DNA of 13,399 nucleotides from a virus: positions 1-13,399 of the IMG/VR virus record IMGVR_UViG_3300045988_069437; one strand, written 5' to 3'. Under the pieces are notes generated by a model, which saw only the letters and a program-made list of their open reading frames with translations, ran no database searches and was not told where the DNA came from. Position numbers and translations under genes: made by a program. The first letter of the stretch is position 1. Each line of letters opens with the position of its first letter. Below are positions 1-13,399 of this stretch, piece by piece.

Positions 1-141
1 GCGATAGATTAACCACCACAGGCGGACATTTGTCTTTCCCCCACGGACACATTTGTGCGCACAACACGGACACAATTTGTGCGTGGCAGGTGGACAGGGT
101 GCGCTTTAACGTGCTAAAGCGGAGCCATATTATTTTCTTAT
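1..141. repeat. Left inverted terminal repeat (ITR) of a linear protein-primed genome
   Basis: Manual alignment of nt 1-141 against the reverse complement of nt 13259-13399. Positions 1-59 are identical. Mismatches fall at left positions 60, 75, 81, 91, 102, 125 and 126, giving 134/141 identity. Similarity decays with indels beyond ~142. The window begins exactly at the repeat. Confidence 0.97.
19..104. repeat. Four phased GGACA-core iterons inside the left ITR (mirrored at 13296-13381)
   Basis: GGACA occurs at 24-28, 45-49, 68-72 and 92-96, with spacings of 21, 23 and 24 nt. The copies read caggcGGACAtTTGTc, cacGGACAcaTTTGTgcg, cacGGACAcaaTTTGTgcg and caggtGGACAgggtgcg. The first three are GGACA-N(0/2/3)-TTTGT with partial dyad symmetry (ACA..TGT). 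Confidence 0.8.
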
Positions 142-173
142 GGTGGATATTAGGAAATATAATACCAATGGGC

Positions 174-205
174 ATAAAGATAGACTGCGGATTGCTCCGC
201 AGCCT
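174..205 (-). terminator. Rho-independent terminator at the end of the late operon
   Basis: On the minus strand, 8 nt after the tailspike stop: AGGCUGCGGA-GCAA-UCCGCAGUCU. This is a 10-bp stem with one G-U pair and a GNRA tetraloop, followed by AUCUUUAU. Confidence 0.6.
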
Positions 206-213
206 ATTCTCTG

Positions 214-1986
214 TTAGCTGATTGTGCCGAATTCTTTCCATGTGCCGGGATTTCCTGTTGCTATGCATACCCAGCCGATAGGACTACCACTTGCAGGACT
301 GCTGTTATAAACAACTTCGCTCAAAGTGTGATTTCCTTCCGTTGGAGCAGCGTTACCGGCTTCAAAGGCATACAAGGAAACGCCTTTGAGTAGCGACATT
401 TTAGACCTATCAATCACATTTGCCGCAATCAGCACGCTACCCGAGATATTTCCTTGTCCACTGTAAATCAGTGCATCATTGTATCTTACGGCCGTATTTC
501 CAATTACGCAAAGTCCTTTAATGTAGCTTAAATTCATAGCAATTTGCGCTGTTGCACCTTCGTTGTTATTAAGATAGCAATTTCTAACTGACAACCCCTC
601 GGTATGTGCACTGTCGCTACCCTCGCAGTGAATGCACTCGCCGTTCATCCACTCGAAATAACAGGTATCAACGTCAATGTTGTAGCGCACACTATTCACG
701 GGGTTAATGGTAATACCGCGCTGACCTTCAAAGTTACATTTTACAAACTTAATGGTTGCGCCGCCGTACAGAATGACAACATTGGAGTTTGTCTTTGTGT
801 TATCCAAAGGCAAAGCAAAATCACACGAATCAAACAGCCAGCTATTAGCCTGTTCAAGCAGTCTGACATTGGAAGGATCTGCGGCATCATTTTGTACGAA
901 CACGCAATTTCTGACTGTAAAAGTCCATGCGTGATCTGCAATGATAGAACTTGTGAAACGTCTGAAAATAATATCAGACAATACCCATTTCTGTGCATAT
1001 TTGAAATTCATGCACACGCCCTCGGCGTTTACGTTAAAGAGTGTCAGGTTTCTGATATATGATTCTTGAATTGTTGTATTGTCCGGCATTACAAAATCGA
1101 ACAGCGTGTTAGTTTCTGATCTAAGAATAGTTGCGTAGATATTCTCACCGAACATTTGAAGTCTGCGTGCTTTGGTTGTATCTAAATGCAAACTCGCCGT
1201 GATTCTGTATTCGCCGTTCGGCACATAGATAGGCGTTTTATTTGTCTGAAATTTTTCAATCGCCGCCTGAAAAGCCGCTGTATCATCATGAACCGCATCG
1301 CCAACAGCGCCAAAATCTCGCACATTGATTACATGAATAGTGCCGCTACCTATTTTAGCCTCAAGAGCCGCATCTGCTTCTTCTCTGGCCGTTGTTTCTG
1401 TGGCAATCTTTGTATCCAGCGCCTTGTCCCCGTTCTCTCTGGCCGTGATCTCGTCCTGCAACTCGCTGGAAATGGTATTCACTTCATTTGCGATACTATC
1501 GCCCAGCGCAACAAATAGATCATGTACGTTGGTTTTCTTACAGTTGGATCCATCAACATACATGTCACCGGCTACGATATTTTTTGTAATAAGCAGCAGA
1601 TCATTTTCCAACCACACCCAGTCACCGGCCTTGTGGTCAATGCTGGCCGTGGTGCTGTGCTGCTCGTCATACGGAGTGATCGCAGATCTCACGCTATCCC
1701 ATAGCGCGGAGAAGTTTCCGATTTTCGTCCAGTATTCTTCACGATCCAGAGACACGCCAGCCGGAACAGGCTGCACGCTCAAGTATGCATTGCCGCTGCT
1801 ATCCAAAACAACGGTGTTCGTTTCATACTGGCTTGTGATATCCCAAATGATAGGATTGGCATACTTTACAGAGTTGATCGCCACAAAGTTCGTGATCTCC
1901 GTCTCAAGCTCTTTCAGCTCATGAAGGATCCAGTCGAGATTTAGTTCATGGAAATTCGCATAGGGAAAGTTTTCAAATAAACCCAT
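214..1986 (-). CDS. Tailspike / pre-neck appendage-like receptor-binding protein with a pectate-lyase-superfamily beta-helix (putative polysaccharide depolymerase)
   Basis: 590-aa ORF. The ATG at 1986 is preceded by AAGGAGG. The N-terminal FPYANFHELNLDWIL motif is common in Firmicute phage fibre and appendage N-termini. A coiled Ala/Glu segment follows (DEITARENGDKALDTKIATETTAREEADAALEAKIG). Next comes VINVRDFGAVGDAVHDDTAAFQAAI...PIYVPNGEY, typical of the start of a right-handed beta-helix (Pectate_lyase_3-like). It is the last structural gene, matching the position of phi29 gp12. Confidence 0.75.
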   Translation of the reverse strand: MGLFENFPYANFHELNLDWILHELKELETEITNFVAINSVKYANPIIWDITSQYETNTVVLDSSGNAYLSVQPVPAGVSLDREEYWTKIGNFSALWDSVRSAITPYDEQHSTTASIDHKAGDWVWLENDLLLITKNIVAGDMYVDGSNCKKTNVHDLFVALGDSIANEVNTISSELQDEITARENGDKALDTKIATETTAREEADAALEAKIGSGTIHVINVRDFGAVGDAVHDDTAAFQAAIEKFQTNKTPIYVPNGEYRITASLHLDTTKARRLQMFGENIYATILRSETNTLFDFVMPDNTTIQESYIRNLTLFNVNAEGVCMNFKYAQKWVLSDIIFRRFTSSIIADHAWTFTVRNCVFVQNDAADPSNVRLLEQANSWLFDSCDFALPLDNTKTNSNVVILYGGATIKFVKCNFEGQRGITINPVNSVRYNIDVDTCYFEWMNGECIHCEGSDSAHTEGLSVRNCYLNNNEGATAQIAMNLSYIKGLCVIGNTAVRYNDALIYSGQGNISGSVLIAANVIDRSKMSLLKGVSLYAFEAGNAAPTEGNHTLSEVVYNSSPASGSPIGWVCIATGNPGTWKEFGTIS

Positions 1987-1996
1987 ATATACCTCC

Positions 1997-2689
1997 TTAA
2001 TAGACTTGTAGACAGAACCGGTTTTTGAAGCTCGTTATAATCACATCAATGATATTATACAGTGCAACATCTCTTTCCGCTTCAATCATCTGTTGTGAAG
2101 TAGTCACGCCAATGTTACCATGCGCACGGCCTTTCCGCAACAGGTTTCTATTTCCGGTTTCGTCCGTGGTATTCTCTGCTGACGTTTTAACCGCCACGGT
2201 GCCAACGTCCTTTTGTTCACTCTCGTTCTTCTCGTTCTGCGTGTTGTTGTCTCGCTCTGTGGGTGTGAAGTCGGTTTCATTGTAGGCGCTCACATACTTC
2301 TGATCGTTGATAACGCCGTCCATGTTACTCTTTTTTGTACTCGTGCCGTCCGTGTCTGTCCGGCTGGTTCCGGTTGCATCGGCTTCCGTGTTTTTCTTCG
2401 TGGCCTCTGCTTCCGTCCATTCTTCCATGCGGTCATAGTTTTCGATTGGGTTATAGTCCAACTGCGTAGTTTTATAGAGCCGCGTCCAGATCGGAAGCTC
2501 TTTAGCGCTCCACCTGCCAATCATGGCCTGCATGAAAACCGCATCCGGATAGATCACTTCCAGTTCCGCAGTTTCCGCAAGCAGGTTGTCTTTGACAAGC
2601 TCCGCGTCCAGCCCATCCGGGAGAGCCAGCTCACCCAAAATACCGGGGTTAATCCTCGACAGACCCAGCAGGCTTACTGTTGCTGACAT
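1997..2689 (-). CDS. Structural protein, putative lower collar / head-tail adaptor (by position after the portal)
   Basis: I place the start at ATG 2689 (MSATVSLL...), preceded by GAAGGAGGTGTTAACA. The ORF-track start at 2758 has no RBS. The product is 230 aa and overlaps the portal 3' end by 41 nt. The central segment is Thr/Asp/Glu/Asn-rich. The function rests only on synteny with phi29 gp11. Confidence in the CDS itself is high, but the functional call is weak. Confidence 0.45.
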   Translation of the reverse strand: MSATVSLLGLSRINPGILGELALPDGLDAELVKDNLLAETAELEVIYPDAVFMQAMIGRWSAKELPIWTRLYKTTQLDYNPIENYDRMEEWTEAEATKKNTEADATGTSRTDTDGTSTKKSNMDGVINDQKYVSAYNETDFTPTERDNNTQNEKNESEQKDVGTVAVKTSAENTTDETGNRNLLRKGRAHGNIGVTTSQQMIEAERDVALYNIIDVIITSFKNRFCLQVY

Positions 2690-3587
2690 TGTTAACACCT
2701 CCTTCATAAGCGTCAGGGAAACGCCATTCAACAGAAAGATCAAGACCAAACATATCATTGGTTGCTTTGATAGATTCTTGAAGTTCTTCCAGCCACATAG
2801 CGCATTTGCTCTGTGTCTCGATGTTGTTGGCGTTCACTTCGTCAGTCACCAGCCGCTCACGCTTGTCCGTGTTGGCGTTGGGAATGCCAATATCCGTGTC
2901 AAACATTGCTTCAATTTTCCGCATGTCACTGAGAATGTCGGAACTGATATAGACGTTCTTCAGATTCTGCTCGAACGCTTCCCACGCTTTGCTTCCATCA
3001 TCCCGGAACAGGTTCTTGTCAATCACCGTGCAGACTTCGCCTGACGCTACACGGTCATACATCTTTTTGAAGCTCTCTGCGGCGGTCTTGTTACCGGCCG
3101 CAAAAACATATGACAAATGCGTGTTCATCAGGTTCATGCCGACAGATTCCGCGCACAAGGCCAGCATATCCGCGTAGTAACCGACAATATCCATAAGGCC
3201 GCCATAATCCGGCTGCAAACGGATGATCGTGCACTGACTTCCGATGCGCGGTTCTTTAATGCCACGCAACAGGGGATTTGTAATAATGGCGTTTGTCGGC
3301 TGATAAAAAACATTGTAGCCGGTCAGCGTGCAGCCCTGCGGAATAACGCCGAACTTGTTTGTATTGACCACTGCGAGATAGCCCCAGCAGTACAGCACAT
3401 AAAGGAAATAGTTCTTACTCCAATGCTCCGGCAACTTCCACTTGAAAAGTGACATAGCCTTTTGAAGCAGGTAGCGCTGGAAGTACTGCGAAAGTGCTGT
3501 GTTTCTGCAATGGACGGTGGACGGACTGATAGCAGCGTTGGCGGCGTTGATATAGTCGTAGCAGGCCGGAATGCCGTTACCAATCAT
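2649..3587 (-). CDS. Portal (head-tail connector, phi29 gp10-like)
   Basis: 312 aa (phi29 gp10 is ~309 aa). The segment GIPNANTDKRERLVTDEVNANNIETQS closely resembles the phi29 gp10 segment [27 protein letters not shown] (recalled from memory). AAGGAG lies 8 nt upstream of the ATG at 3587. Confidence 0.88.
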   Translation of the reverse strand: MIGNGIPACYDYINAANAAISPSTVHCRNTALSQYFQRYLLQKAMSLFKWKLPEHWSKNYFLYVLYCWGYLAVVNTNKFGVIPQGCTLTGYNVFYQPTNAIITNPLLRGIKEPRIGSQCTIIRLQPDYGGLMDIVGYYADMLALCAESVGMNLMNTHLSYVFAAGNKTAAESFKKMYDRVASGEVCTVIDKNLFRDDGSKAWEAFEQNLKNVYISSDILSDMRKIEAMFDTDIGIPNANTDKRERLVTDEVNANNIETQSKCAMWLEELQESIKATNDMFGLDLSVEWRFPDAYEGGVNNVSNSKPAGSVED

Positions 3588-3591
3588 ACAA

Positions 3592-4128
3592 TCATCTCCT
3601 TTCTTTGAGTTTGAATAGCAGCCAGATAGGGATTTGCTTCACGGGTGGATGTCCTGCAAGATATTCATACCAGTATTCAGCCTGTCGGCTTCTCGCCGGC
3701 TGTGGCTTCACCGTTGGCCGCTCATAATTATAAAGGAATGCCTGCGCGAGATATGCAGGCGGCTTGTCAGATTGCGAAAACTCACGGAACGTCATAGGGT
3801 AAAGGCTGGTGCTAATCCATTGCAGATGATTTTCAAGCTCGTAAATGATCCGCGCCATTTCCTTCTGGCCGTTGTCTTGCCATCCATCCCCGGCCCAGTT
3901 TGAATATTTCGTGTACGGTGTCCACTGCACAAGGCCGTAGCCGCCTGCGAACGGATCCAGATTTTCCCAGATTCCCGGATTCAGTGTGCTTTCCGTCTGC
4001 ATGTTGCCGAACATGGCCGCGATAGCGTTTACCGTCCAGCCCTGATCCGTGAAGAATGCATACATAATATCAGCGTTGTTCTGCATTTCCGTCATAGACA
4101 GATAGCGGTTTCCAGTGATCCACGGCAT
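3592..4128 (-). CDS. Tail-associated peptidoglycan hydrolase, lysozyme-like domain only (N-terminal domain of phi29 gp13; Phage_lysozyme2-like)
   Basis: 178 aa. NRYLSMTEMQNNADIMYAFFTDQGWTVNAIAAMFGNMQTESTLNPGIWENLD...GYGLVQWT...YERP...QAEYWY parallels the phi29 gp13 N-terminus ([52 protein letters not shown]...GFGLVQWT, from memory). This includes the catalytic-Glu context MQ(T/S)ES. There is no M23 peptidase domain. Confidence 0.85.
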   Translation of the reverse strand: MPWITGNRYLSMTEMQNNADIMYAFFTDQGWTVNAIAAMFGNMQTESTLNPGIWENLDPFAGGYGLVQWTPYTKYSNWAGDGWQDNGQKEMARIIYELENHLQWISTSLYPMTFREFSQSDKPPAYLAQAFLYNYERPTVKPQPARSRQAEYWYEYLAGHPPVKQIPIWLLFKLKERR

Positions 4129-4139
4129 AGAAGCTCACC

Positions 4140-5546
4140 TCATTCATAGAAATAGCCGGATGCAAGATAGCTTTTGACCATTCTGTTTTCTTCGCTCGTT
4201 CCGGATAGTGAGAGATCCGGATCTGCAATCACCTGATAACCGGGCAGCGTGGACAGCTTCACCTTTTTACAATAGGGCCGTCCGCGATCCTCGTTATCAT
4301 CAGAGACCACCGGAAGAAATTTAGCGTACAGCGTGGGCGCGCTGGTGAAGTTGGCAATAGTGCCATTGCTTCCGCTGGTGGCGAACTCTGGCATAGATGC
4401 GTTAACCATATCGCCGATCATGTTCGCGCCGGCTGTGATCGCTCCAACAGGATTAAACCAGTTTTTAGCAACGTTCGCCGCTCCATTCACGGCGGTCAAA
4501 GCCATATTTAAATAGTTCTGGCCGATCTGCGCGATCTGAACCGGCACACCGTACTGGCCGCGCCGGACAGCAATCGCATAGTCTTTCAGTCCGGCTTTGA
4601 GATACATATCAGCAATGCCCGTTGTGTAGTCCACTGTGTAAGTCATGCTCAGCGCTTCTTCATTGATAATCGCTGTGGTGTCAATCGGAATGACCCCCCA
4701 CACGCGGCTGTCAAACGTGTACTGTGAGAATGGCGCGGCGTTGAGATACTTCCCTCGTGTAGCGGATTGCGGATGCTTCGGAATTGTGATGATAGCTGCA
4801 GACGGAAGCACACCAGCTGTTTTTAGCTTCGCTGCGTTTACCGGCACATTCCACCAGCCGAATGGGATAGAAGTTACCGCTGTACCAGCCGGGGCATTAT
4901 CCGGATACCACATCACGCTGGTGATATACTGCATGGGATTAAACAGGACTTTGAGAAGATCCGCGGAGATCTCTATATTTTCACCCGTCCACGAAACATC
5001 ACCCAACAAATAGGCCATGAATGACCGGAACTGCACCTCGCTGAAAACGTAGTAAGCAACAGCGCCGATAGCGTCAGCGCTATTATTTACAATTCCGACA
5101 ACATAGGAACCGCCAGAGATCGCCGTTACCGTGGGCCATGTAGACGCTGCTTCAGCGCTCAATGTAACATCGCCCTTTGCCGGGTAAAGTCCGTCAATCA
5201 CGCTGCCGTCAGACGCAAAGGCGCTGCGCGTCACGTATTGAAAACTCTCCCCGATGCTGTTCTTCCAGCTGGCCAGAACGTCAACCTCCAAGTGCGCCGT
5301 CCACAAGTGACCATTGCCAACCGTCCAATCCCTGATAAAATAATAGCGGTTTCCCAGATCGGAAATATACGCATAATTATAATAAGAGGGATTTCCCTTT
5401 AGGCCAAAGTCAAAAGTAATTTCCGGCCTTAACAGGCTTGTAGGCATCTTCAAGACGGCGTTGTGCGTTCTCTGCGTCACGGTGCTGTCCGGTCTTTTTG
5501 TGCTGTTCTCACGCTTCTTGAACTCGTACAGCGTTACACTAAGCAT
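4140..5546 (-). CDS. Tail knob / distal tail tube protein (phi29 gp9-like N-terminal domain)
   Basis: 468 aa with a strong RBS (AAAGGAGGTCAATT-ATG). NYAYISDLGNRYYFIRDWTVGNGHLWTAHLEVDVLASWKNSIGESFQYVTRS resembles phi29 gp9 ([58 protein letters not shown], from memory). It follows the MCP, as gp9 does in phi29. Confidence 0.72.
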   Translation of the reverse strand: MLSVTLYEFKKRENSTKRPDSTVTQRTHNAVLKMPTSLLRPEITFDFGLKGNPSYYNYAYISDLGNRYYFIRDWTVGNGHLWTAHLEVDVLASWKNSIGESFQYVTRSAFASDGSVIDGLYPAKGDVTLSAEAASTWPTVTAISGGSYVVGIVNNSADAIGAVAYYVFSEVQFRSFMAYLLGDVSWTGENIEISADLLKVLFNPMQYITSVMWYPDNAPAGTAVTSIPFGWWNVPVNAAKLKTAGVLPSAAIITIPKHPQSATRGKYLNAAPFSQYTFDSRVWGVIPIDTTAIINEEALSMTYTVDYTTGIADMYLKAGLKDYAIAVRRGQYGVPVQIAQIGQNYLNMALTAVNGAANVAKNWFNPVGAITAGANMIGDMVNASMPEFATSGSNGTIANFTSAPTLYAKFLPVVSDDNEDRGRPYCKKVKLSTLPGYQVIADPDLSLSGTSEENRMVKSYLASGYFYE

Positions 5547-5560
5547 AATTGACCTCCTTT

Positions 5561-5598
5561 AAAATAGGGGCAGGACACGAGGAAAGTGTCCCACCCCT
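5561..5598 (-). terminator. Hairpin attenuator / partial terminator immediately after the capsid gene
   Basis: On the minus strand, 7 nt after the MCP stop: AGGGGUGGGACAC-UUUCCUC-GUGUCCUGCCCCU. This is a 13-bp stem with two G-U pairs, followed by AUUUU, which runs straight into the RBS of the tail knob gene. Confidence 0.6.
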
Positions 5599-5605
5599 AC
5601 GTGTG

Positions 5606-6820
5606 TTAATCCAGCAACAGCAGAACGCCCTTTTCCGTCATATCCATAAAGGCCCGGAAATTAACGTGGTCATAGGTGTTCCAGTAGCCGCCCTTGGCGT
5701 TGAACGGCGTGACTGCCGCCCAGTTGTTAACCTGCGCATAGCCCAGCGCTTCTTCGTCAAAGATAACGCCGAAAATGCCGGCCTGCTCCACTGCTTCACC
5801 GGTCTTTGCCGTGCCGTTGGTGTCGGTATAGACGGGTGTCACGTTAATGCTGTCCGGCGTTTCAATGGACTGCCAGAAGTTCACGCCCTCATAGTCCGTA
5901 TACCGCAGATAGTTGTCGTGGAAGCTGTTAGCCTTGACCATCGCATCAAACTGATCCATAGCCTTGGCATACAGATACACCTTCTGCCGATTCGCAGGGG
6001 TGTGCCGCATAACGTGCTTTTCGTTGACCACCGTCTGATACATCTCGCTCCGCTCGGTCATCATGCGAGAAATGGTTGCGATCCTTGCGTAAGTCCACTG
6101 CATGAAGCTGGTGAAGTTCTCCGGCTGGTAAACGCTCTGCGCAGTCAGTGCAAGGCCGGTTTCCGCATTGTACTCTCTCAACAGGTGCACGATTCTCGTA
6201 TTCTGATTCTCGGAAAGAATGGAAGCAATGTAGTTCGCCAACTGGCCGCGCGCGATATTCTCCCGGTACTGTTCCAGCTTGTCGGCGCGGTTGCCGGTAA
6301 TCATGGAATTGAACCGCATGAATTCTTCCGCGCTGGTAAAGGCCACGTCCATGTTATCCTTAAAAATAGTATAGCTATTCTCGTAGACGCTCTGTCCGTA
6401 GAAATTCACCTGCAAAATATCAGGCTTGTTCAATCCGTACATGTCCACGCTCTGACCCTCGCCCAGCGCGTTGGGCGCTTTGGCTGCATCATAGGCTGCG
6501 GGCCACGTGAACCGGGCATCGTCCTCAATGGGCTTATCTGCAATGGAAAGCTTCCGGACTGCATTACCCCAACGTTCCATGGACATTTCCAAACCGGAAA
6601 ACTTACGGGTGTAAGGCCGAATGCTGAAAATGGTTCTACCCCACATCTGAGACAGTGCGTTGATAATGGGATCATAGCCGGTTTTCAGCGCAGTCTGGGC
6701 CACGCTGACGAATTCGCCGGGCGTGGTTGCGGCAATAACGCTCTGACCGGTTGCCTGCTTGACGATATTCTGCAAGATCGTTCCGGCCTGAAATACCGTC
6801 ATATCATTTACGTTTGCCAT
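5606..6820 (-). CDS. Major capsid protein (phi29 gp8-like HK97 fold, without a C-terminal Ig-like domain)
   Basis: 404 aa, positioned between the scaffold-like gene and the tail genes. The segments MDVAFTSAEEFMRFNSMIT and NAKGGYWNTYDHVNF resemble phi29 gp8 LKTAFVSWGNFESFVSSII and NPRGLYWNYYYHVWQ (from memory). It contains no TTA, CTA or TCA codons, which is consistent with strong codon bias. Confidence 0.82.
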   Translation of the reverse strand: MANVNDMTVFQAGTILQNIVKQATGQSVIAATTPGEFVSVAQTALKTGYDPIINALSQMWGRTIFSIRPYTRKFSGLEMSMERWGNAVRKLSIADKPIEDDARFTWPAAYDAAKAPNALGEGQSVDMYGLNKPDILQVNFYGQSVYENSYTIFKDNMDVAFTSAEEFMRFNSMITGNRADKLEQYRENIARGQLANYIASILSENQNTRIVHLLREYNAETGLALTAQSVYQPENFTSFMQWTYARIATISRMMTERSEMYQTVVNEKHVMRHTPANRQKVYLYAKAMDQFDAMVKANSFHDNYLRYTDYEGVNFWQSIETPDSINVTPVYTDTNGTAKTGEAVEQAGIFGVIFDEEALGYAQVNNWAAVTPFNAKGGYWNTYDHVNFRAFMDMTEKGVLLLLD

Positions 6821-6823
6821 ATT

Positions 6824-7174
6824 TTACTTTTCTCCTTTCGGTGCCGGGTTGATGATCTCGGCAAGAATTTCTTCGGGTGTCTGAACCTTGGGCTGGTTCA
6901 CGTTCATAATGTTGCTGCCCTGCACAAGCCCGGTCAACTTCTGCAACTCTGCAAGAACGGGATCAACCGGGGCAGGGGCAGGCTGAGGAACGGGGGCAGG
7001 AGCAGGAGCAGGAGCAGGAGCAGGCTGAGGAACGGGGGCAGGTGCAGGCTGCGGAACGGGGGCAGGTGCAGGCTGCGGAACAGGGGCAGGATTGTTAATC
7101 ATGGAAAGACCTGCAATCTGCTGAGCGGTAAACCCAGCTTTCGCAAGGGTCAGGATTTCGTCAGGCTTAAACAT
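6824..7174 (-). CDS. Putative scaffolding protein with a central Pro/Ala-rich repeat linker
   Basis: 116 aa, immediately upstream of the MCP, the position of phi29 gp7. The N-terminus MFKPDEILTLAKAGF loosely resembles gp7 MPLKPEEHEDILNKL. Two predicted helical ends flank (PAPAPVPQ)n. The functional call rests on synteny. Confidence 0.55.
   Translation of the reverse strand: MFKPDEILTLAKAGFTAQQIAGLSMINNPAPVPQPAPAPVPQPAPAPVPQPAPAPAPAPAPVPQPAPAPVDPVLAELQKLTGLVQGSNIMNVNQPKVQTPEEILAEIINPAPKGEK
6968..7091. repeat. Tandem DNA repeat inside the scaffold-like gene
   Basis: Four 24-nt units, gcaggctg(a/c)ggaac(g/a)ggggcagg(a/t), at 6978-7001, 7020-7043, 7044-7067 and 7068-7091. An 18-nt (gcagga)x3 insert lies at 7002-7019. 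The repeats encode PAPAPVPQ and PAPAPA. Confidence 0.9.
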
Positions 7175-7831
7175 TTATTTTCTTCCTTTCTTTAAATAAA
7201 TTAGAATGACGTGTGCAACGTTGCGGCTGGAACACACCTGCCGGCGCTCGTGGTCAAGGTAGACCTGAGAACTGCCGCCACAGTCAAGCATAACAGCATC
7301 TTGCCAACCGTAGCTTTGAAGTAGCTGTGCAAGCTGTTCCGGCGTTTTCCTTGCTCGTGATCCGTCCTTAGAAGCATAAAGACACAAACGCTTCTGACCG
7401 TTAACATACTTAGTGCCGATAGCAGTTCTTCCACGCCTGCCGCCCTGTGCAACGTTGTAGATTGGCTTCTTGATTGCTTTCCCATCCATCAGGATATGAC
7501 TGCAAGCAATGTAATTTTCCCATGCTTGATTGGGGACTAAATCAAAGTGAAAACTATTTGCGTTGTAGTTGTCCCAGAGATAGCCACGATACAGATATTT
7601 CCCATGGTACAGCGTTACACCGTTCCGGCGTAGAGGGCAAACCGGGTTGCCATTCATCATATTATATAAGGTTCCGTTGATTGCGTAGTCTGCGCCGGTT
7701 TCGCTGATAATGGCAGATAGAGATTTCCGCTTTCGTGTTCGTGGGTTTGGTTTGTTCAGGTAAATTTCAATTCTTTCAATGTCATCCAATGGAATTGAAA
7801 CTGCTACCTCATTCTCTTTCTTCGCTGACAT
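7175..7831 (-). CDS. Phosphodiester glycosidase (NAGPA / DUF2233) family protein in the endolysin position
   Basis: The ATG at 7831 has GAAGGAG 10 nt upstream. The ORF-track start at 7840 is a GTG only 1 nt from that RBS. The product is 218 aa. Family-like motifs are GADYAINGT, GRTAIGT and AVMLDCGGSSQ (the family consensus is roughly AINGGFF / RTAIG / LDGGGSS). It has no signal peptide or TM segment and overlaps the holin 3' end by 23 nt. Confidence 0.65.
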   Translation of the reverse strand: MSAKKENEVAVSIPLDDIERIEIYLNKPNPRTRKRKSLSAIISETGADYAINGTLYNMMNGNPVCPLRRNGVTLYHGKYLYRGYLWDNYNANSFHFDLVPNQAWENYIACSHILMDGKAIKKPIYNVAQGGRRGRTAIGTKYVNGQKRLCLYASKDGSRARKTPEQLAQLLQSYGWQDAVMLDCGGSSQVYLDHERRQVCSSRNVAHVILIYLKKGRK

Positions 7832-8033
7832 GGCCGACACGCTCCTTCAACAGCGACACGACCTCTTTGAGATCTCGCAGTGCTTCGGTGTTCTCCTTGA
7901 CTACTTCCGTCCAGCGCTCACTTTCTGCCGCGTGGCTTTCGCGCTCCTTGTTCTGCATCCAGAACATGACACCCACGCAAACGATCGGAAATCCCAGATT
8001 GCTTACAAGCTGACTAATAGTAGAAACGTCCAT
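7809..8033 (-). CDS. Holin, BhlA/UviB-like (single N-terminal TM plus a charged coiled C-terminus)
   Basis: MDVSTISQLVSNLGFPIVCVGVMFWMQNKERES..., followed by a charged helical tail, resembles BhlA-family holins (M.D......L...GP......F......KERES). There are two in-frame ATGs (8039 and 8033, MYM). The RBS AGAAGG is 1 nt from the first ATG and 7 nt from the second, so 8033 is preferred. Confidence 0.68.
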   Translation of the reverse strand: MDVSTISQLVSNLGFPIVCVGVMFWMQNKERESHAAESERWTEVVKENTEALRDLKEVVSLLKERVGHVSEERE

Positions 8034-8053
8034 ATACATTCCTTCTGCCGGAT

Positions 8054-8059
8054 ATTATA
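8054..8059 (-). promoter_or_regulatory. Candidate -10 box (TATAAT) of a late promoter lacking a recognisable -35
   Basis: A minus-strand TATAAT lies 14 nt upstream of the holin ATG at 8039. The hexamers 16-18 nt upstream (GCATGA, CGCATG, ACGCAT) are not -35-like. Confidence 0.25.
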
Positions 8060-8064
8060 ATAAT

Positions 8065-8135
8065 GAGCAAGGGCATCATGCGTTAGTCAGACGCGTGCAC
8101 CAGCTTCCGGCTGTGACTTTGTGCAACCCTTGCTC
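8065..8135 (-). other. Structured intergenic element (long-range inverted repeat enclosing nested hairpins) between the ATPase and holin genes
   Basis: GAGCAAGGG (8065-8073) and CCCTTGCTC (8127-8135) form a perfect 9-bp inverted repeat around 53 nt. The enclosed RNA can form CAGC-CGGAA-GCUG stacked on UGCAC/GUGCA. Alternative pairings are AGUCA/UGACU and GCGU/ACGC. An ACGCGT palindrome sits in the middle. Confidence 0.4.
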
Positions 8136-8150
8136 TGATATAAGAGTAGC

Positions 8151-9188
8151 TTATCTCAAATACTTTGTCAAGTAATGTTCCGCTAAGTATTCTTCAAAAG
8201 TTACCTTATTTTTCATGTACGCATCCCACAGCCAGCCATACATACGCTTGAAGCGCTGTATGTCTGCTTCACTGTCAGTGTAGCACGGCGGACTGCCGGA
8301 CTTGTGCAAGGAAACGTAATAGGTGCCGTCTGACTTGTGCCGATACACGCAGATTTTAGAGATTGCGCAAATAGGAATAAATTCCTTAATAGGTCTGCTC
8401 CGAATGTTTCCGAAATCGTTAAATGAAAATTTGTTATCCAGTGCCATTTCAGAAAAGCGTGTGCCCTCCGTAGCCTTATAAAGCACGGTGTTCCGCTTTT
8501 CGTCTGAAATGGGAGAGTGTTGAAGCATATAAAGACATATACCTCGCTTGTCATCTTGATAGACTTCTTTGCCCTTGGCTAACATCTCATTTGCTCGTTT
8601 GACCAGATTGAAACCTACAAACACCGGGTTTGCTACATCGTTAGCGTTGGCGAGACAGAGAAGCTGCACGGGCTTCCGTCCTTGCAGCTCTCTGTTACGG
8701 TTCACTGTCTCGTAGCAGTTCATAAGCGCTTCAAACTCGTTTTTAATTGGGCGCTCGTGGCGTTCCGGTATAAATTCGTCAAAAATCATCAAGTCAACGT
8801 CTGACGCATCAAACCCTCGAATATTCGAAAACGTTGATAAAGCGGCTGAATATCCCAATGGCTTACCCTGCTGTATCTGCTTGCCGTCCTCGTCTACCTT
8901 ATAAAAATAAAAGGCGCTGTTGTACTTCGTGACCGGCGAGGACGTTATTAAGAGGTTTTGATCCTCACATATTCGCTTGAATGGGGAAAACTCCGGTTTT
9001 GTAATAATGTCGGCCTGTGCCTGTGTTCGCCGGATCAACAAGAAAGTTCTTGGGACTTGGATAGATTCTAACAGACTGCCGTAAGTTTTGCCTGTGGCTC
9101 GCCCTCCAACCGCAAAGTTGAAGGGCAAGCCACGCTCAAGCAATCCGTGAACATCTAAATAGCCGCTATCAAGATATATGCGGCTCAT
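8151..9188 (-). CDS. DNA encapsidation (packaging) ATPase, phi29 gp16-like
   Basis: 345 aa (gp16 is ~332 aa). The Walker A motif is GGRATGKT near the N-terminus, and the Walker B motif is VDLMIFDEF. No nuclease-type terminase domain is apparent, which is consistent with protein-primed unit-length genome packaging. Confidence 0.85.
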   Translation of the reverse strand: MSRIYLDSGYLDVHGLLERGLPFNFAVGGRATGKTYGSLLESIQVPRTFLLIRRTQAQADIITKPEFSPFKRICEDQNLLITSSPVTKYNSAFYFYKVDEDGKQIQQGKPLGYSAALSTFSNIRGFDASDVDLMIFDEFIPERHERPIKNEFEALMNCYETVNRNRELQGRKPVQLLCLANANDVANPVFVGFNLVKRANEMLAKGKEVYQDDKRGICLYMLQHSPISDEKRNTVLYKATEGTRFSEMALDNKFSFNDFGNIRSRPIKEFIPICAISKICVYRHKSDGTYYVSLHKSGSPPCYTDSEADIQRFKRMYGWLWDAYMKNKVTFEEYLAEHYLTKYLR

Positions 9189-9191
9189 GGG

Positions 9192-9527
9192 TTACACCAA
9201 AGTGCAGGTAATGAAATCGCGGCCCGCCTTGCTCTGGCCGCTGATAACTTCGATGGTGTAATCATCGCCGTCCATCAGATCCGCGATGTTCATGAAATCG
9301 CGCTTGAAGGTGTCGCTGTTAGTAGCGCAGACGCCGCCGTCCTTGTCCATGACAGACAGCACCTCGACTTCCTTTCCGTCCTTGTTCACGTCCTTGTACA
9401 AGCAGTACGCGACCACATCGATCTGAACGCCGATGTAGTCCTTCATCTTCTTGATAGCCGGGTCAAGGGTCAGCTTGTAGCTTTCACGCTTGGTCAGTTC
9501 CTTGTTGCTCTTAATGATAGTAGCCAT
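9192..9527 (-). CDS. Single-stranded DNA-binding protein, phi29 p5-like
   Basis: 111 aa. VLSVMDKDGGVCATNSDTFKRDFMNIADLM...YTIEVISGQSKAGRDFITCTL parallels phi29 p5 ([30 protein letters not shown]...FKVKVVQGTSSKGNVFFSLQL, from memory). It lies next to the polymerase. The RBS AAAGGAG is 9 nt upstream. Confidence 0.6.
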   Translation of the reverse strand: MATIIKSNKELTKRESYKLTLDPAIKKMKDYIGVQIDVVAYCLYKDVNKDGKEVEVLSVMDKDGGVCATNSDTFKRDFMNIADLMDGDDYTIEVISGQSKAGRDFITCTLV

Positions 9528-9554
9528 AGTGATAATCTCCTTTAAAATTAAATG

Positions 9555-11579
9555 TTATTCGTATTCGTAACGAATTTCGGTTAGCAGCCGCTTATAATCA
9601 GCGGCGAGGCCCAATGTGCTGTGACGGAGACGGAGAGAGACATTAGATGTTATTCTAAGGGCGCGGCCCTCGGCCTGATACTCGCGGTACTCACCAACCG
9701 GCATATCATTATAGACTGCTTCCAGTCCGCCGGCTTCTTCAAAGGTGAAGCCCTCGTGAAATGCCGTGATACCTCCGTGTGCTTCAAGTTCTTCACCCCC
9801 TTTCTTTTTTGAAACTCCGGCAATGGTGCAGATCAGTTTACTGTCAGGTGTTTCGCGGTAAACGTATTTCTTCGCGCCCATCGTGCGAAACTCACACATA
9901 TCATGTTCTTGCTCGTAAACACCCATGTAGTGAGTTTCGCCGCTGGGATCGGTGGCAAACGCTCCACTTTTCCGACTGTCTTTCACTCGTGCATTGTTGA
10001 ATTTCTTCAAGTCGATCTCGCCTAAATACTTCACGCTGTCTGTGTCGCAGTAAACAAACTGCGGCGCGTTGGGATCATCTGGATCTCCATGGGCAAGCTG
10101 TATGCCTTCTTCCAGCCGGTAGCGTGCCCATGCCGTCACCCACACACCCCAATGATAAGCAAGAAATGCTTTCCTATTATGCGCAAGCAGCAGCCCTGCT
10201 TCATCCTCGTTCTGTTCCTCGAACATGTTGTTAATGAATAGGATGGACTGCTTTACCGGATCTTGTGCGCACATTCCATATAGGGAATTCAGCTTGTTCT
10301 TAGATTTCAGGTAAAGCAGCTCTTGCCCTTCTACGTTTTTCAGCTCTGTTTTATAGTGGTAGTATTGGCAGATCGTTTTTATGAGCGGCTTCGGCAAATA
10401 GCCATATCGCGCACACGCCACGTCAAAGAATTTGATATCAGTCCAGTCATACTCAGAAATCAAAATCTTGAGATCAATGTCTGTTATGGTGGTTTCTAAG
10501 TAGTCAGCGGAAATGATTCTGCCATTGTCCACCAGCGCGTTCTCTGTGTGTCGGCATTTCGATAGGCTCAAATATGGGCATCCCCAATCAATACGCCGCA
10601 AATGCGGCCCGGTCAAAGCTACACGCATGATGCAGGCTTTCTCGCGCACACCCAGCATCTTAATGACTTCTTCATAAGGCAGATCGCCCAGCCGGTAAAA
10701 TTCACTGATTGGAAATTTACAGTTGCACATAACATCAGGGTAGCTGCTGGATCTGTCGGCGCTGTGGACGTTGTGCAGCGTGTAATTGGTATAGTATCGG
10801 TTCGCGTGGGTGTTACCGCCCCGGAACGCTTCACGGAGCATCTTGTATATCTCATAGTCTGGCAGCTGTGACTTTACAAAGCTGTATGACACATCTGACA
10901 TTGCTTTCTTAGCATCACGGCGAACGTAGCCGGTTGACGTCAGAGGGAAAGTATAGATTGTGTCACCGTCATGCTCCATTTCTATCTGGATGGCTTCCAC
11001 AAGTCCCTGCACGTCATGCACGCAATATGCAAGCTCTGATTCGCTCAGTTCTGTCCATGGGTAACGGATCTTGTCATAGTCGAATGTGCCGGATAGCTTC
11101 GCGTGCTGAACACCCATTTTCTTGGTGTATGTATCCAGATTCATGTTGCTGTGGAGATAGGAACAGCGGAACTCGAAACAATCCCACATATCACACTTTA
11201 GGACTTTGCGAGATTTTACAGCAAATACATCTTCTTGCCGGAAGAAGTATATACCCTTCAAGAATTGAAATTCATATGATAGGTTATGCACGAATACAGG
11301 TAGAAACACGTCACCCAGAACGCTTCTCAGGTGATTCTGGAAATCTAAGAATTCTTCCCACGTCCGGCCTACAACAGTATAATTAGTGCCAAATTGCCAT
11401 TGCCAGATATACATGAAGGATTGTTCAATGTCTGGAAGTCTGGTTGTCTCAATGTCAAAGGCTGTTATCAGATCCTTGTATTTCCGTCTTTTCTTCGTGC
11501 GCTGGTTGCCTGGTTTACGCTTCACCAGAGGAATATCTGCAAGCCATTCATAAGGGAAATCCGCTGCACTGATAATCAT
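9555..11579 (-). CDS. Protein-primed family-B DNA polymerase (phi29 gp2-like)
   Basis: 674 aa. Exonuclease motifs: ExoI FDIETT, ExoII HNLSYEFQF, ExoIII YCVHDVQGL. Polymerase motifs: motif A DRSSSYP, motif B KSKNKLNSLYG, GVWVTAWARY (phi29 has GVFITAWARY), motif C YCDTDS, KxY GAKKYVY, and thumb IAGVSKK. Its ATG overlaps the upstream stop (ATGA at 11576-11579). Confidence 0.96.
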   Translation of the reverse strand: MIISAADFPYEWLADIPLVKRKPGNQRTKKRRKYKDLITAFDIETTRLPDIEQSFMYIWQWQFGTNYTVVGRTWEEFLDFQNHLRSVLGDVFLPVFVHNLSYEFQFLKGIYFFRQEDVFAVKSRKVLKCDMWDCFEFRCSYLHSNMNLDTYTKKMGVQHAKLSGTFDYDKIRYPWTELSESELAYCVHDVQGLVEAIQIEMEHDGDTIYTFPLTSTGYVRRDAKKAMSDVSYSFVKSQLPDYEIYKMLREAFRGGNTHANRYYTNYTLHNVHSADRSSSYPDVMCNCKFPISEFYRLGDLPYEEVIKMLGVREKACIMRVALTGPHLRRIDWGCPYLSLSKCRHTENALVDNGRIISADYLETTITDIDLKILISEYDWTDIKFFDVACARYGYLPKPLIKTICQYYHYKTELKNVEGQELLYLKSKNKLNSLYGMCAQDPVKQSILFINNMFEEQNEDEAGLLLAHNRKAFLAYHWGVWVTAWARYRLEEGIQLAHGDPDDPNAPQFVYCDTDSVKYLGEIDLKKFNNARVKDSRKSGAFATDPSGETHYMGVYEQEHDMCEFRTMGAKKYVYRETPDSKLICTIAGVSKKKGGEELEAHGGITAFHEGFTFEEAGGLEAVYNDMPVGEYREYQAEGRALRITSNVSLRLRHSTLGLAADYKRLLTEIRYEYE

Positions 11580-12235
11580 AAGAATTCTTTCAGATCCTTG
11601 TATAGATCATCGGAGCTTTTCTCAATGACGTTCCGCTCTTTCTTATGTGGCTTGTTCTTTTCATCCTGCCATGCCTCGAAATCGCGTAGTATCTGCGCTG
11701 TTTTGTCTTTGCGTTCGGCAGCTTTCTCAAAGGCTTCGCTATTCCTGATTGCCTCGTAAAAATCCAGAGCAACTGTGGATCCATAGCCGCGCATCATACC
11801 ATCTTTCCACTGCCGGAAAAACTCGCCCAGATCTATATAGTTAGATTCATTTACAAAGGTATAACCGTGCTTGTGGAAAGTCTTGATTGCTTTGTCTCTG
11901 GCTCTCTTAATACCTCTCAGCGTGCCGGTTCGCGCGGTCATCATCTTCGCGAGGTCTGCAAGCAGCAACTTCATTTCGTAGAGCTTCAACTCGGAGGATG
12001 GCTTATAACGATCCTTATTATAATAGTATGTCTTGCTGGCTCTGCCGATTTCACTTTCTTCAATACGCTTTAAGCGCTTCTGTGCGATTACGCGCAGGCG
12101 CTGGTATTCGTGCTTGATGTTTTCGGGTGTCCATACATCTGCGTGCCGGATCGCGTCCAGCGTGTAAAATTCCGGGGTTTCTTTTGGGTCAATCACTTCC
12201 CCGGTTTCCGGGTCTGCTATTCGGTAAAACTTCAT
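11576..12235 (-). CDS. Candidate terminal protein (replication primer)
   Basis: 219 aa, Lys/Arg/Glu-rich. It lies immediately upstream of the polymerase and is translationally coupled to it, as gp3-gp2 are in phi29. The RBS AAGGAG is 10 nt upstream of the ATG at 12235. The genome has ITRs and a protein-primed polymerase, so a terminal protein must exist, and this is the only candidate of suitable size. I recognise no convincing sequence motif. Confidence 0.5.
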   Translation of the reverse strand: MKFYRIADPETGEVIDPKETPEFYTLDAIRHADVWTPENIKHEYQRLRVIAQKRLKRIEESEIGRASKTYYYNKDRYKPSSELKLYEMKLLLADLAKMMTARTGTLRGIKRARDKAIKTFHKHGYTFVNESNYIDLGEFFRQWKDGMMRGYGSTVALDFYEAIRNSEAFEKAAERKDKTAQILRDFEAWQDEKNKPHKKERNVIEKSSDDLYKDLKEFL

Positions 12236-12350
12236 GCTTTGCTATCTCCTTTCGGAAAAGCTCACGGCACAGGGCAGAAGCGCTCATATCGTTCTGCGCT
12301 GCGATCTGTTCAATCTGGTGCTTCATCTCTGCCGTAACGGATAGTGTCAT
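12189..12350 (-). CDS. Ribbon-helix-helix (CopG/Arc-like) DNA-binding protein
   Basis: I place the start at ATG 12350, which forms an ATGA overlap with the upstream stop. The ORF-track start at 12386 would overlap the upstream gene by 40 nt. In the 53-aa product, MTLSVTAEMKHQIEQIAAQNDMSASALCRELFRKEIAK fits a beta-strand / helix A / helix B RHH pattern. The 3' tail overlaps the terminal-protein start by 47 nt. Confidence 0.6.
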   Translation of the reverse strand: MTLSVTAEMKHQIEQIAAQNDMSASALCRELFRKEIAKHEVLPNSRPGNRGSD

Positions 12351-12550
12351 GTGGGTACATTCCCCGTGCTTAAAACGACTTCGCATTGTTCTCTGGTCAG
12401 CTCCTTTCTAATAAGATTGATACGGAGATCAGGCTTTCTTTGCTTGGCGATTGCGATACATTTTAGCGCAACGCGCAGATCAGAAAACAGATACGTTGTC
12501 TTGGGCAGATACTTGTAATGAACTGTCACCAACCACATATTACTGCTCAT
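12347..12550 (-). CDS. Hypothetical early protein (67 aa)
   Basis: The ATG at 12550 is preceded by ACAGGAGGATCACTCT. It overlaps the upstream gene by 11 nt and is coupled to the downstream RHH gene. No recognisable motif. Confidence 0.6.
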   Translation of the reverse strand: MSSNMWLVTVHYKYLPKTTYLFSDLRVALKCIAIAKQRKPDLRINLIRKELTREQCEVVLSTGNVPT

Positions 12551-12737
12551 AGAGTGATCCTCCTGTATATTCCTCGCCTGTTAGCATTTCATACATTTTC
12601 TTTGCAGTACAGTATCTTGCCAAACTACGCCGAAACACCTCGCTATCCCATCCGTCACGGTCAAGCCAATAGCTCACTTTTTCCTCAAGATCATTGATAT
12701 AACGATTAGCCGTTTCTTTTCGTGAATGGTTATCCAT
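12540..12737 (-). CDS. Hypothetical early protein (65 aa)
   Basis: This is an internal ATG of the 112-aa track ORF (MDNHSRKE...), preceded by GGAAAGGAG with an 8-nt spacer. The track's ATG at 12878 has no RBS. The product is acidic and aromatic-rich, with no recognisable motif. Confidence 0.55.
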   Translation of the reverse strand: MDNHSRKETANRYINDLEEKVSYWLDRDGWDSEVFRRSLARYCTAKKMYEMLTGEEYTGGSLYEQ

Positions 12738-12906
12738 TGTAGAAGCTCCTTTCCAGCAGGCGCGATCCCTGCTCGTTATATTCCCAGATTTCAACATCGT
12801 ATCCACATCTGTGGAAACGAATGAAGCGTTCAAGGATCCAGCTGTAATCAGATGACCAGCAGCTGCGTTGTTCACCATGCTTAATGTAGATCAAGCGATA
12901 TCGCAT
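12730..12906 (-). CDS. Hypothetical early protein (58 aa), not in the supplied ORF track
   Basis: Hand translation of the minus strand gives GGAAGGAGGTGAACTAG-ATG, then MRYRLIYIKHGEQRSCWSSDYSWILERFIRFHRCGYDVEIWEYNEQGSRLLERSFYNG, then TAA. The RBS sits in the last codons of the upstream gene. The stop overlaps the next gene's ATG region (ACAATGGATAA). This ORF fills what would otherwise be a 174-nt gap. Confidence 0.55.
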   Translation of the reverse strand: MRYRLIYIKHGEQRSCWSSDYSWILERFIRFHRCGYDVEIWEYNEQGSRLLERSFYNG

Positions 12907-12911
12907 CTAGT

Positions 12912-13133
12912 TCACCTCCTTCCAATATAGCGCAATGCTAACTGTGTCATGCGGCGATCATCTTTCATGAGTAGCATTAGCGTATTCAATACTTTCCATT
13001 CGCCTTTAGCAATCGCAACTTCTTGATCAACCTCGCCGTATTTGTCACGCTTGCTTGTGTATAGGTCAAAAGAAATGCGTTCCCAATCTTCAACATGCTT
13101 CAAAAGTGCTTTATAACGGATTTCATCGTTCAT
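12912..13133 (-). CDS. Hypothetical early protein (73 aa), first gene of the genome
   Basis: The ATG at 13133 is preceded by GGAGAAAGGATAATTAA. It is the first ORF downstream of the candidate early promoter. No recognisable motif. Confidence 0.6.
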   Translation of the reverse strand: MNDEIRYKALLKHVEDWERISFDLYTSKRDKYGEVDQEVAIAKGEWKVLNTLMLLMKDDRRMTQLALRYIGRR

Positions 13134-13196
13134 TTAATTATCCTTTCTCCGTTCGGCTGTTGTGTTCTGTGCACTGCTCATTGTTTGATTGTCTAT

Positions 13197-13225
13197 ATCT
13201 TATCAGAAAAAATACTAAAAGGCAA
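13197..13225 (-). promoter_or_regulatory. Candidate sigma-A-type early promoter
   Basis: The minus strand reads TTGCCT, then 17 nt ending in TGA, then TAAGAT. The -35 is at 13220-13225 and the -10, with a TGn extension, is at 13197-13202. It lies in an AT-rich tract 34 nt inside the right ITR and ~60 nt upstream of the first ATG. Confidence 0.4.
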
Positions 13226-13258
13226 CAACTTTTATCATTAAATATTCTAATACCAACA

Positions 13259-13399
13259 ATAAGAAAATAATATACCTCCGCTTTAGCACGTTAAAGCACA
13301 CCCTGTCCGCCTGCCACGTACAAAATGTGTCCGTGTTGTACGCACAAATGTGTCCGTGGGGGAAAGACAAATGTCCGCCTGTGGTGGTTAATCTATCGC
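13259..13399. repeat. Right inverted terminal repeat (ITR)
   Basis: Reverse complement of 13259-13399 matches nt 1-141 (see left ITR). The window ends exactly at the repeat. Confidence 0.97.

Follow-up and report, generated by a model that had tools for sequence, protein, structure and literature searches.

Two questions are raised by the IMG/VR virus record IMGVR_UViG_3300045988_069437, which was analysed over its whole length of 13,399 nt (13.4 kb; hereafter the window): whether it is the entire genome of a phi29-like, protein-primed phage, and what is encoded in the 111-nt gap between the stop of its packaging ATPase gene (8151) and the start of its holin-like gene (8039), a gap that contains a structured element, a 72-nt RNA. 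We are highly confident that the window is a complete linear double-stranded DNA genome, that of a small podophage of the phi29 type which stems from the animal or human gut, has not been cultured and is probably virulent. A complete phi29-like genome bounded by inverted terminal repeats (ITRs) had already been proposed in an earlier interpretation made without database searches (hereafter the sequence-only reading), and this proposal was borne out by the repeats, by the shared and adapter-fused termini of relatives and by the full gene set described below.

Genome ends and completeness

All 17 open reading frames (ORFs) of the window lie on the minus strand, and about 96% of its length is coding. 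This co-directional array runs from early and replication genes through the packaging ATPase gene and the lysis genes to the structural genes (Table 1). Gene families were assigned by Pfam and PHROGs searches. The hallmark set of phi29-like phages, as defined by Evseev et al. 2024 (PMC11476376), consists of p2, p8, p9, p10, p11 and p16, and the window has this set in full, with a family-B DNA polymerase (PolB), a major capsid protein (MCP), a tail knob (by fold only), a connector, a lower collar (weak match) and a gp16-type ATPase. Most of the gene list of the sequence-only reading was recovered in this way, with PolB, ATPase, holin, MCP, portal, collar, tailspike and lysozyme found by Pfam or PHROGs and the knob by its fold, while the single-stranded DNA-binding protein (SSB) gave a borderline score and the terminal protein stayed a candidate.

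Both ends of the window are inverted repeats and coincide with physical DNA ends. The two arms (1-163 and 13237-13399) are 92% complementary; compared without gaps from the ends inward, they are identical over 59 nt, 96% identical over 124 nt, 95% over 141 nt (the length given in the sequence-only reading) and 92% over 163 nt, after which identity decays. With mismatches at 13 of 163 positions, the imperfect arms are not copies made by an assembler. Relatives were collected in a PolB-based scan of IMG/VR, which gave 49 loci, nearly all spanning an entire contig of 12.7-14.3 kb, and in a scan of 185,579 species-representative genomes, which gave 80 further relatives (L051-L130), all of them contigs of metagenome-assembled genomes (MAGs) from the guts of humans, ruminants, horses and rabbits and no longer than 15.5 kb. 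The termini of several loci from the PolB-based scan match those of the window, G(C/T)GATAGATTAACC. In L016, L028 and L029 an Illumina adapter (...GTGTGCTCTTCCGATCT) is joined straight onto the first terminal G, and because adapters are ligated to physical DNA ends, these adapter-fused termini mark true ends. Adapter remnants (…GCTCTTCCGATCT and CAAGCAGAAGACGGCATACGAGAT) have been kept at the ends of the public IMG/VR contigs L016, L028, L029 and L050, which is a contamination of the database.

Across the genus, the outermost ~50 nt with their two GGACA boxes are conserved, and the remaining part of the ITR diverges. Four boxes with a GGACA core start at positions 24, 45, 68 and 92 of the window, spaced by 21-24 bp or about two helical turns, and are mirrored at 13304-13376; they are candidate sites for an origin or transcription protein, such as the ribbon-helix-helix protein g04. 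The clade-specific termini GCG, GTG, GGG and GAG (L030, L032-L034, L043 and L018) have a constant G at positions 1 and 3, from which one may speculate that initiation takes place at the third template base and is followed by a slide-back of two bases. The 3' end of L014 (its first ~180 nt when read as the reverse complement) carries two terminal motifs in tandem 153 nt apart, first a window-type ITR and then an L018-type motif, GTGATAGATTAACC; either the assembly is chimeric or recombination has produced a stacked ITR.

By analogy with phi29, Cp-1 and PRD1, DNA synthesis would be primed at both ends by a terminal protein (candidate g05), the conserved outermost ~50 bp with the GGACA boxes would be the origin or an array of protein-binding sites, a promoter in the right ITR would drive the early genes, and the gp16-type ATPase, seated on the portal, would package the DNA at unit length. 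The late operon would start at the promoter-like site just past the ATPase gene and would be led by the 72-nt RNA with its three-way junction. The host would be Gram-positive (Bacillota) rather than a member of Bacteroidota, because ribosome-binding sites (RBSs) of the AAGGAGG type are strong in the window, the promoters are of the TTGACA/TATAAT type, and the tail lysozyme is 49% identical to phi29 gp13.

Several observations weigh against this picture or against parts of it. The case for physical termini is built on comparative evidence, and the terminal GCGATAG is without a simple reiteration such as the AAA of phi29. The candidate terminal protein found no match in a sequence-profile search of the PDB nor in a Foldseek fold search. 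The late promoter of the window has a perfect -35 element (TTGACA) and a weak -10 element (TACTCT), and the RNA is without a clear U-tract. With respect to the host, the MAG bins of the relatives are contradictory (Bacteroidales, Clostridia, Treponema/Spirochaetes and Alphaproteobacteria), and the homologues of the NAGPA-type lysin are all on phage-sized contigs and are phage-borne. The presence of whole 12-15 kb phage genomes in MAGs of unrelated phyla is mis-binning, which could mislead host prediction.

A conserved structured RNA ahead of the late genes

The RNA (GAGCAAGGGUUGCACAAAGUCACAGCCGGAAGCUGGUGCACGCGUCUGACUAACGCAUGAUGCCCUUGCUC; 8065-8135, minus strand) is made up, from 5' to 3', of P1 (formed by the two ends), P2, a 7-nt internal loop on the 5' side (AAAGUCA), P3 with the pentaloop CGGAA, the P4 hairpin with the loop UGACU, and P1', and its internal loop and P4 loop are mutually complementary. 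P2 and P4 have about 5 bp each, P1 ranges from 7 to 21 bp across relatives, and the whole RNA measures 62-90 nt. A TTGA[CT][AT] element was found upstream of the RNA in 41 of 58 unique relatives, many of them with TATAAT. A first covariance model (CM), built from 12 sequences and run over 1.16 Mb, gave 64 matches, exactly one per genome, and nothing else at E<=1; the copy in the window scored 79.9 bits (E 5e-15). A second CM gave 14 further matches at E<=0.0012, plus weak ones in L109 and L114 at E ~0.2, and the RNA is thus present once per genome in about 80 relatives. The same architecture and place were kept in relatives whose ATPases are 30-58% identical, with helix sequences that are completely different.

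Covariation was evaluated over 41 distinct sequences. In total, 95% of cells were paired, compared to 64% in shuffled and ~40% in slid controls, and compensatory, both-sided changes were seen in 27 of the 30 RNA pairs; as the nested helices had been aligned to the CM, these counts are biased. The fifth helix, formed by the two loops, is absent from the CM and its pairing figure is therefore unbiased: 83.5% of its cells were paired, and three of its five positions had double-sided changes. At least 18 distinct complementary loop pairs were found, for example AGUCA/UGACU, GACCA/UGGUC, GAAAC/GUUUC and AGACGA/UCGUCU. The excess of G·U over A·C (59 versus 21) among the RNA pairs agrees with a transcript of the same sense as the genes. 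The single-sequence fold of the region was not significant (z = -1.06), and the case for the RNA therefore rests on covariation. Of 2.9 million IMG/VR contigs, just 44 contained the exact core pattern, and every one of them is a phage of this type. No Rfam 15 family matched the whole window or the RNA region, and the phi29 pRNA family RF00044 in particular gave nothing at E<=1 (window) or E<=10 (region). Hammerhead, purine-riboswitch, tRNA-like and boxB readings were considered and discarded, as their core motifs or Rfam/ARAGORN matches are lacking. Even if it is not a packaging RNA, the element would represent a new phage-specific class of structured RNA, marked by an invariant apical loop (YNGAA) and by loops that form a pseudoknot or a kissing pair. 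PMC10690425 reports six candidates for structured RNAs "upstream of Podovirus_gp16" in IMG/VR, and the 72-nt RNA may be one of them.

The likeliest role of the RNA, at about even odds, is in our view that of a 5' leader acting in cis on the late (lysis and structural) operon. Such a leader would mediate attenuation or antitermination, with a logic like that of lambda PR'-tR' or HK022 put, or would regulate translation of the first late gene, and its two loops would pair within one molecule as a pseudoknot. The RNA was always located at +1 of the late-operon promoter, rearranged genomes included: in five loci in which the late operon is inverted (L067, L078, L081, L086 and L087), it still heads that operon, away from the ATPase gene. 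It lies 12-30 nt ahead of the first late RBS, whose gene encodes a holin-like protein or a lysin, and L073 has a single promoter, followed by the RNA, a strong canonical terminator and the RBS. At least four T residues lie within 8 nt past P1 in 37 of the 58 unique copies, and in 20 of them the apical loop CCGGA has a complementary TCYGG or CCGG just 5' of the RBS. The variable length of P1 also agrees with a leader, as do the equal arms of ~5 bp, which suit a side-by-side fold in which the loops could pair within one molecule. However, a three-way junction with an invariant exposed pentaloop is superfluous for a plain terminator or leader and yet has been kept where the ATPases share only ~30% identity. 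In addition, no early protein conserved across the family offers itself as an obvious partner, an alternative antiterminator pairing is not evident in L073, and the RNA resembles none of the known put, nut and EAR elements and no family in Rfam.

A more tentative proposal is that the RNA acts in trans as a miniature prohead or packaging RNA (pRNA), bridging the portal and the gp16-type ATPase, with its loops pairing between molecules and closing a ring. Domain I of phi29 pRNA consists of helix A (from both ends), a three-way junction, helix C, an internal loop on the 5' side, helix E with its apical loop, and helix D, whose loop complements the internal loop; the elements of the 72-nt RNA follow in the same 5'-to-3' order. 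Two features of pRNA, the three-way-junction topology and the covarying complementarity of internal loop and D loop, are present in the RNA, the latter with the covarying loop pairs and the pairing outside the CM given above. The RNA starts ~7 nt past a sigma-70 promoter, as phi29 pRNA does past A1, and usually lies 14-70 nt past the gene of the gp16-type ATPase. A U-tract follows many copies, a separate canonical terminator is present in L073, and within IMG/VR the motif is confined to these phages. The sequence-only reading had seen no obvious pRNA; this holds insofar as no Rfam pRNA model matched, but it missed that a conserved RNA of pRNA-like topology is present.

Against the packaging role, there is no CM similarity in either direction: RF00044 does not match the window, and the new CM, run with filters off, did not match phi29 or its pRNA. 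In the five inverted loci the RNA goes with the late operon and not with the ATPase gene, its 3' end is close to the next RBS, and the clade L031-L044 is without a U-tract. P1 is variable in length, and P2 and P4, equal at ~5 bp, could let the loops pair intramolecularly. In phi29 pRNA (117-174 nt compared to ~72 nt), helix C is much longer than helix D, and the RNA forms a separate unit at the genome end. The portal N-terminus is without a basic RKR-like tail. Other roles share the remaining probability, and the leader and packaging roles are not mutually exclusive, since a leader could be released and then used. To our knowledge, how a gp16-type ATPase docks on the portal in phi29-like phages outside Bacillus is an open question. 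According to PMC11476376, only the phi29-like phages of Bacillus are considered to have a pRNA, and PMC6266182 mentions a Cp-1 pRNA which its model could not find. In the late-leader region of Cp-1 (4699-4870), inspected by eye only and without a CM search, an architecture like that of the 72-nt RNA was not seen.

Related phages and novelty

The closest relatives of the window are uncultured human-gut contigs of the same genus-level cluster (UViG_3300045988_119152, or L002; UViG_3300045988_033304, or L003; and others), which are alike in size (12.9-14.2 kb), termini, gene order and the RNA, with PolB identities of 78-96%, and which differ as mosaics, their knob, spike and small early genes being swapped or diverged. 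Among cultured phages, Amedibacillus AD70P2 and AD70P3 (12.2-12.3 kb; placed in Guelinviridae by NCBI) are co-directional and have the same order as the window: terminal-protein-like gene, PolB, small genes, ATPase, intergenic RNA, small transmembrane protein, MCP, knob, portal, collar and spike. The RNA copy of AD70P3, missed by the CM even with filters off, was recognised by eye only, with the loops UAUCC/GGAUA. In contrast to this shared synteny, protein identity is only 25-37%, the GC content is 27% versus 48% in the window, and genes for the tail lysozyme and the NAGPA protein are lacking. The Astrithrvirus phages of Salmonella (astrithr, Astrid and assan) together with Phanie, DU_PP_III and K58 g2 (10.4-11.9 kb) are also small and phi29-like, with PolB identities of ~33-37% and a small transmembrane protein after the ATPase; they differ in their Gram-negative hosts, in having the portal before the MCP, and in having neither a gap nor a CM match after the ATPase gene.

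The likeness to phi29 itself (Salasmaviridae, 19.3 kb) extends to PolB (23% identity), the ATPase (30%), the portal (23%), the lysozyme domain of gp13, the fold of the knob, a linear genome with ITRs, and the order of the structural genes (scaffold, MCP and knob, then connector, collar and appendage). However, phi29 has an ITR of 6 bp, divergent early and late transcription and a p4/p6 switch, whereas the ITR of the window is ~141-163 bp and its genes occupy one strand. phi29 also has a head fibre, an Ig-like MCP domain, a gp13 peptidase domain and a 174-nt pRNA at its left end; the first three are missing from the window, in which, unlike phi29, the ATPase gene precedes the structural genes and the 72-nt RNA heads the late operon. 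Membership in Salasmaviridae was rejected on the basis of the one-strand layout compared to divergent units, the absence of an RF00044 match, and size (13.4 kb versus ~18-27 kb); a size below that of this family had been noted correctly in the sequence-only reading. Tectiviridae, weighed for their ITRs, PolB and genomes of ~15 kb, have a double jelly-roll MCP, an FtsK-type ATPase and no portal or tail genes, and were rejected since the window encodes a phi29 (HK97-type) MCP, a portal, a collar, a knob and a tailspike.

The sequence-only reading had further taken the window for a near-minimal tailed virus of a probably undescribed lineage, with very few tailed phages below ~14 kb, and we consider this very improbable. 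A megablast of the whole window against INPHARED gave no match, the best cultured relative has a PolB identity of only 37%, and NCBI assigns nothing closer than "Caudoviricetes sp." However, proteins identical to g05, MCP and PolB have been deposited in NCBI nr (DAQ06306.1, DAQ06297.1 and DAQ06295.1; "MAG TPA ... Caudoviricetes sp.", from a 13,399-bp contig) and also in JGI, and the 90% protein clusters of MCP and PolB have 758 and 243 members, respectively. The genus-level cluster of the window takes in at least 28 IMG/VR genomes, with all or nearly all 17 genes shared by L002-L029 and L050, and more than 100 related contigs of 12-15 kb are available. The group has also been catalogued: Evseev et al. 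2024 listed 2,115 phi29-like entries in 30 MCP clusters, many of them human-metagenome genomes of 12-15 kb, and described clusters of 11-15 kb. As to a near-minimal size, cultured phi29-like phages are smaller still, namely Vibrio K58 g2 (10.4 kb), Salmonella astrithr (11.6 kb), Acinetobacter Phanie (11.9 kb) and Amedibacillus AD70P2 and AD70P3 (12.2-12.3 kb). Nucleotide coverage multiplied by identity reached up to 84% within this cluster, under the species threshold of 95%, and the window is a separate species in a well-sampled genus-level cluster, already deposited without characterisation.

It is barely credible that the window is an assembly artefact or a piece of a larger or circular replicon (prophage, phage-plasmid or concatemer, the sequence-only reading having named a fragment of a larger replicon as one way in which it could fail): mis-assembly can yield ITR-like ends, and L014 has its tandem terminal motifs, but the mismatched arms speak against an artefact, as do dozens of independent assemblies that share length and ends, some adapter-fused, and the about 130 related contigs group at 12-15 kb, with none above about 15.5 kb or embedded in a larger replicon, while integrase, partition and plasmid genes were not found with Pfam and PHROGs.

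Gene content

Coordinates and the basis of each assignment are given in Table 1. Three of the features, the NAGPA gene, the Arc-like ribbon-helix-helix gene and the structured RNA, had been overlooked in the sequence-only reading. No tRNA gene was found in the window.

Table 1. Features of the 13,399-nt window and the basis of their assignment.
Feature	Coordinates	Strand	Basis or remark
Left ITR	1..163		first ~50 bp conserved terminal block, candidate minimal origin
GC-rich terminator-like hairpin	185..202		after last gene; also faces ITR promoter copy 106-133 (+)
g17 tailspike/appendage, pectate-lyase-like beta-helix, 590 residues	214..1986	-	PF12708 60 bits; many tailspike and pre-neck-appendage PHROGs
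g16 lower collar, gp11-like	1997..2689	-	phrog_3225 "adaptor Ad4" E 2.9e-5 (weak); product name same as phi29 gp11
g15 portal / upper collar connector, 312 residues	2649..3587	-	PF05352 71.5 bits; phrog_2038 E 6e-31
g14 tail lysozyme, gp13 N-terminal domain only, 178 residues	3592..4128	-	PF18013 113 bits
g13 tail knob, gp9 homologue, 468 residues	4140..5546	-	AlphaFold model and Foldseek
g12 phi29-type MCP, 404 residues	5606..6820	-	PF25622 59.2 bits (cut-off 27), residues 17-386
g11 putative scaffold, Pro/Ala-rich, 116 residues	6824..7174	-	precedes MCP gene; function inferred
g10 NAGPA phosphodiester glycosidase	7175..7840	-	PF09992 48 bits; phrog_18955 E 3e-42
g09 holin-like protein with a single transmembrane segment, 76 residues	7809..8039	-	phrog_4898 E 3e-6
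Conserved structured RNA, 72 nt	8064..8136	-	covariance model and covariation
Sigma-70-type promoter, TTGACA (8171-8166), 17-nt spacer, TACTCT (8148-8143)	8143..8171	-	ends 7 nt before RNA
g08 gp16-type DNA packaging ATPase, 345 residues	8151..9188	-	PF05894 75 bits (cut-off 25); phrog_2150 E 3e-34
g07 phi29 p5-like SSB, 111 residues	9192..9527	-	borderline: PF17427 24.4 bits (cut-off 25)
g06 protein-primed-type family-B DNA polymerase, 674 residues	9555..11579	-	PF03175 53.7 bits (cut-off 25.8); phrog_1907 E 8e-61
g05 candidate terminal protein, 219 residues	11576..12235	-	position, conservation, all-helical model
g04 Arc/CopG-like ribbon-helix-helix protein, 65 residues	12189..12386	-	phrog_3431 E 2e-5; PF01402 weak
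g03 small early protein, 67 residues	12347..12550	-	no family match
g02 small early protein, 112 residues	12540..12878	-	no family match
g01 small early protein, 73 residues	12912..13133	-	no family match; conserved only within genus
Right ITR	13237..13399		mirror of 1-163; contains promoter-like site
Promoter-like TTAACG-16-TATTAT	13294-13267	-	inside right ITR, faces early genes

Among the early and replication genes, g04 is a candidate transcription regulator or binder of the ITR boxes. The stop of g05 overlaps the PolB start, its YGS motif (residues 151-153) is invariant, and a structural model of it is all-helical, with a predicted local distance difference test (pLDDT) score of 79; its position, conservation and all-helical model make g05 a candidate terminal protein. 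In an alignment of PolB with ten relatives, the motifs DxE, YxxxD, DxxSxYP, KxxxNSxYG, YxDTDS and KKY (Exo I-III and Pol A/B/C/KxY) were invariant. The copy of the promoter-like site in the left ITR (106-133, plus strand) aims inward at the hairpin at 185-202, and could give a transcript of ~60-70 nt without evident function. No supported structure was found next to the right ITR (fold z = +0.98).

Of the lysis genes, g09 is the first gene after the RNA in most relatives, and an alternative start at 8033 would improve its RBS spacing. The g10 product is probably the endolysin, and its true start is likely the ATG at 7831 (218 residues, as in the homologues) and not the GTG at 7840, judging from homologue lengths and the RBS. 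In g11, an array of 24-bp tandem repeats (6965-7090, minus strand) codes for the Pro/Ala-rich tract (PAPVPQ...); the putative scaffold is 89-136 residues long in relatives, which suggests repeat expansion and contraction. The absence of a head fibre, of the Ig-like MCP domain and of the gp13 peptidase domain, all remarked on in the sequence-only reading, was upheld: the gap of 59 nt between the MCP and knob genes leaves no space for a head-fibre gene, and Pfam found neither an Ig-like domain at the C-terminus of g12 nor a gp13-type M23 peptidase domain.

The g13 protein had no sequence match in Pfam, PHROGs or a PDB profile search, while its AlphaFold model, made from 40 homologues (pLDDT 81), matched phi29 gp9 (5fb5) in Foldseek with E 4e-13, probability 1.0 and a template-modelling score of 0.56, and it also matched the C1 gp12 and Andhra knobs (5fb5, 4eo2 and 8egs; E 4e-13 to 4e-8). 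Its only disordered or low-confidence stretch, residues 340-394, is a Gly/Ala-rich hydrophobic loop, which presumably resembles the membrane-insertion loop of gp9. In comparisons of the window with L003-L029, the tail-knob alleles are sharply split (~94% versus 53% identity) where the flanking genes are 85-95% identical, suggesting module exchange at a gene of host interaction. The tailspike and the lower collar are also variable among close relatives. For g16 the longest ORF reaches 2758, and the most likely start is at 2689, after the RBS GAAGGAGG. The g14 lysozyme is 49% identical to the N-terminal domain of phi29 gp13, compared to only 23-30% for the other shared genes, which would point to strong constraint or to horizontal transfer.

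The genome itself adds little; its value is that of a clean end-to-end reference with termini verified by comparison, and the RNA is the feature worth following. As a leader, the RNA would be a new antitermination or attenuation element by which a large group of gut phages controls its genes for lysis and virion. As a pRNA, it would imply that RNA-bridged motors are not confined to Bacillus phages; such motors would then be widespread in hundreds of small phi29-like gut phages, including AD70P2 and AD70P3. As a copy of the RNA is recognisable in a cultured phage, the question of how the ATPase docks is directly testable.

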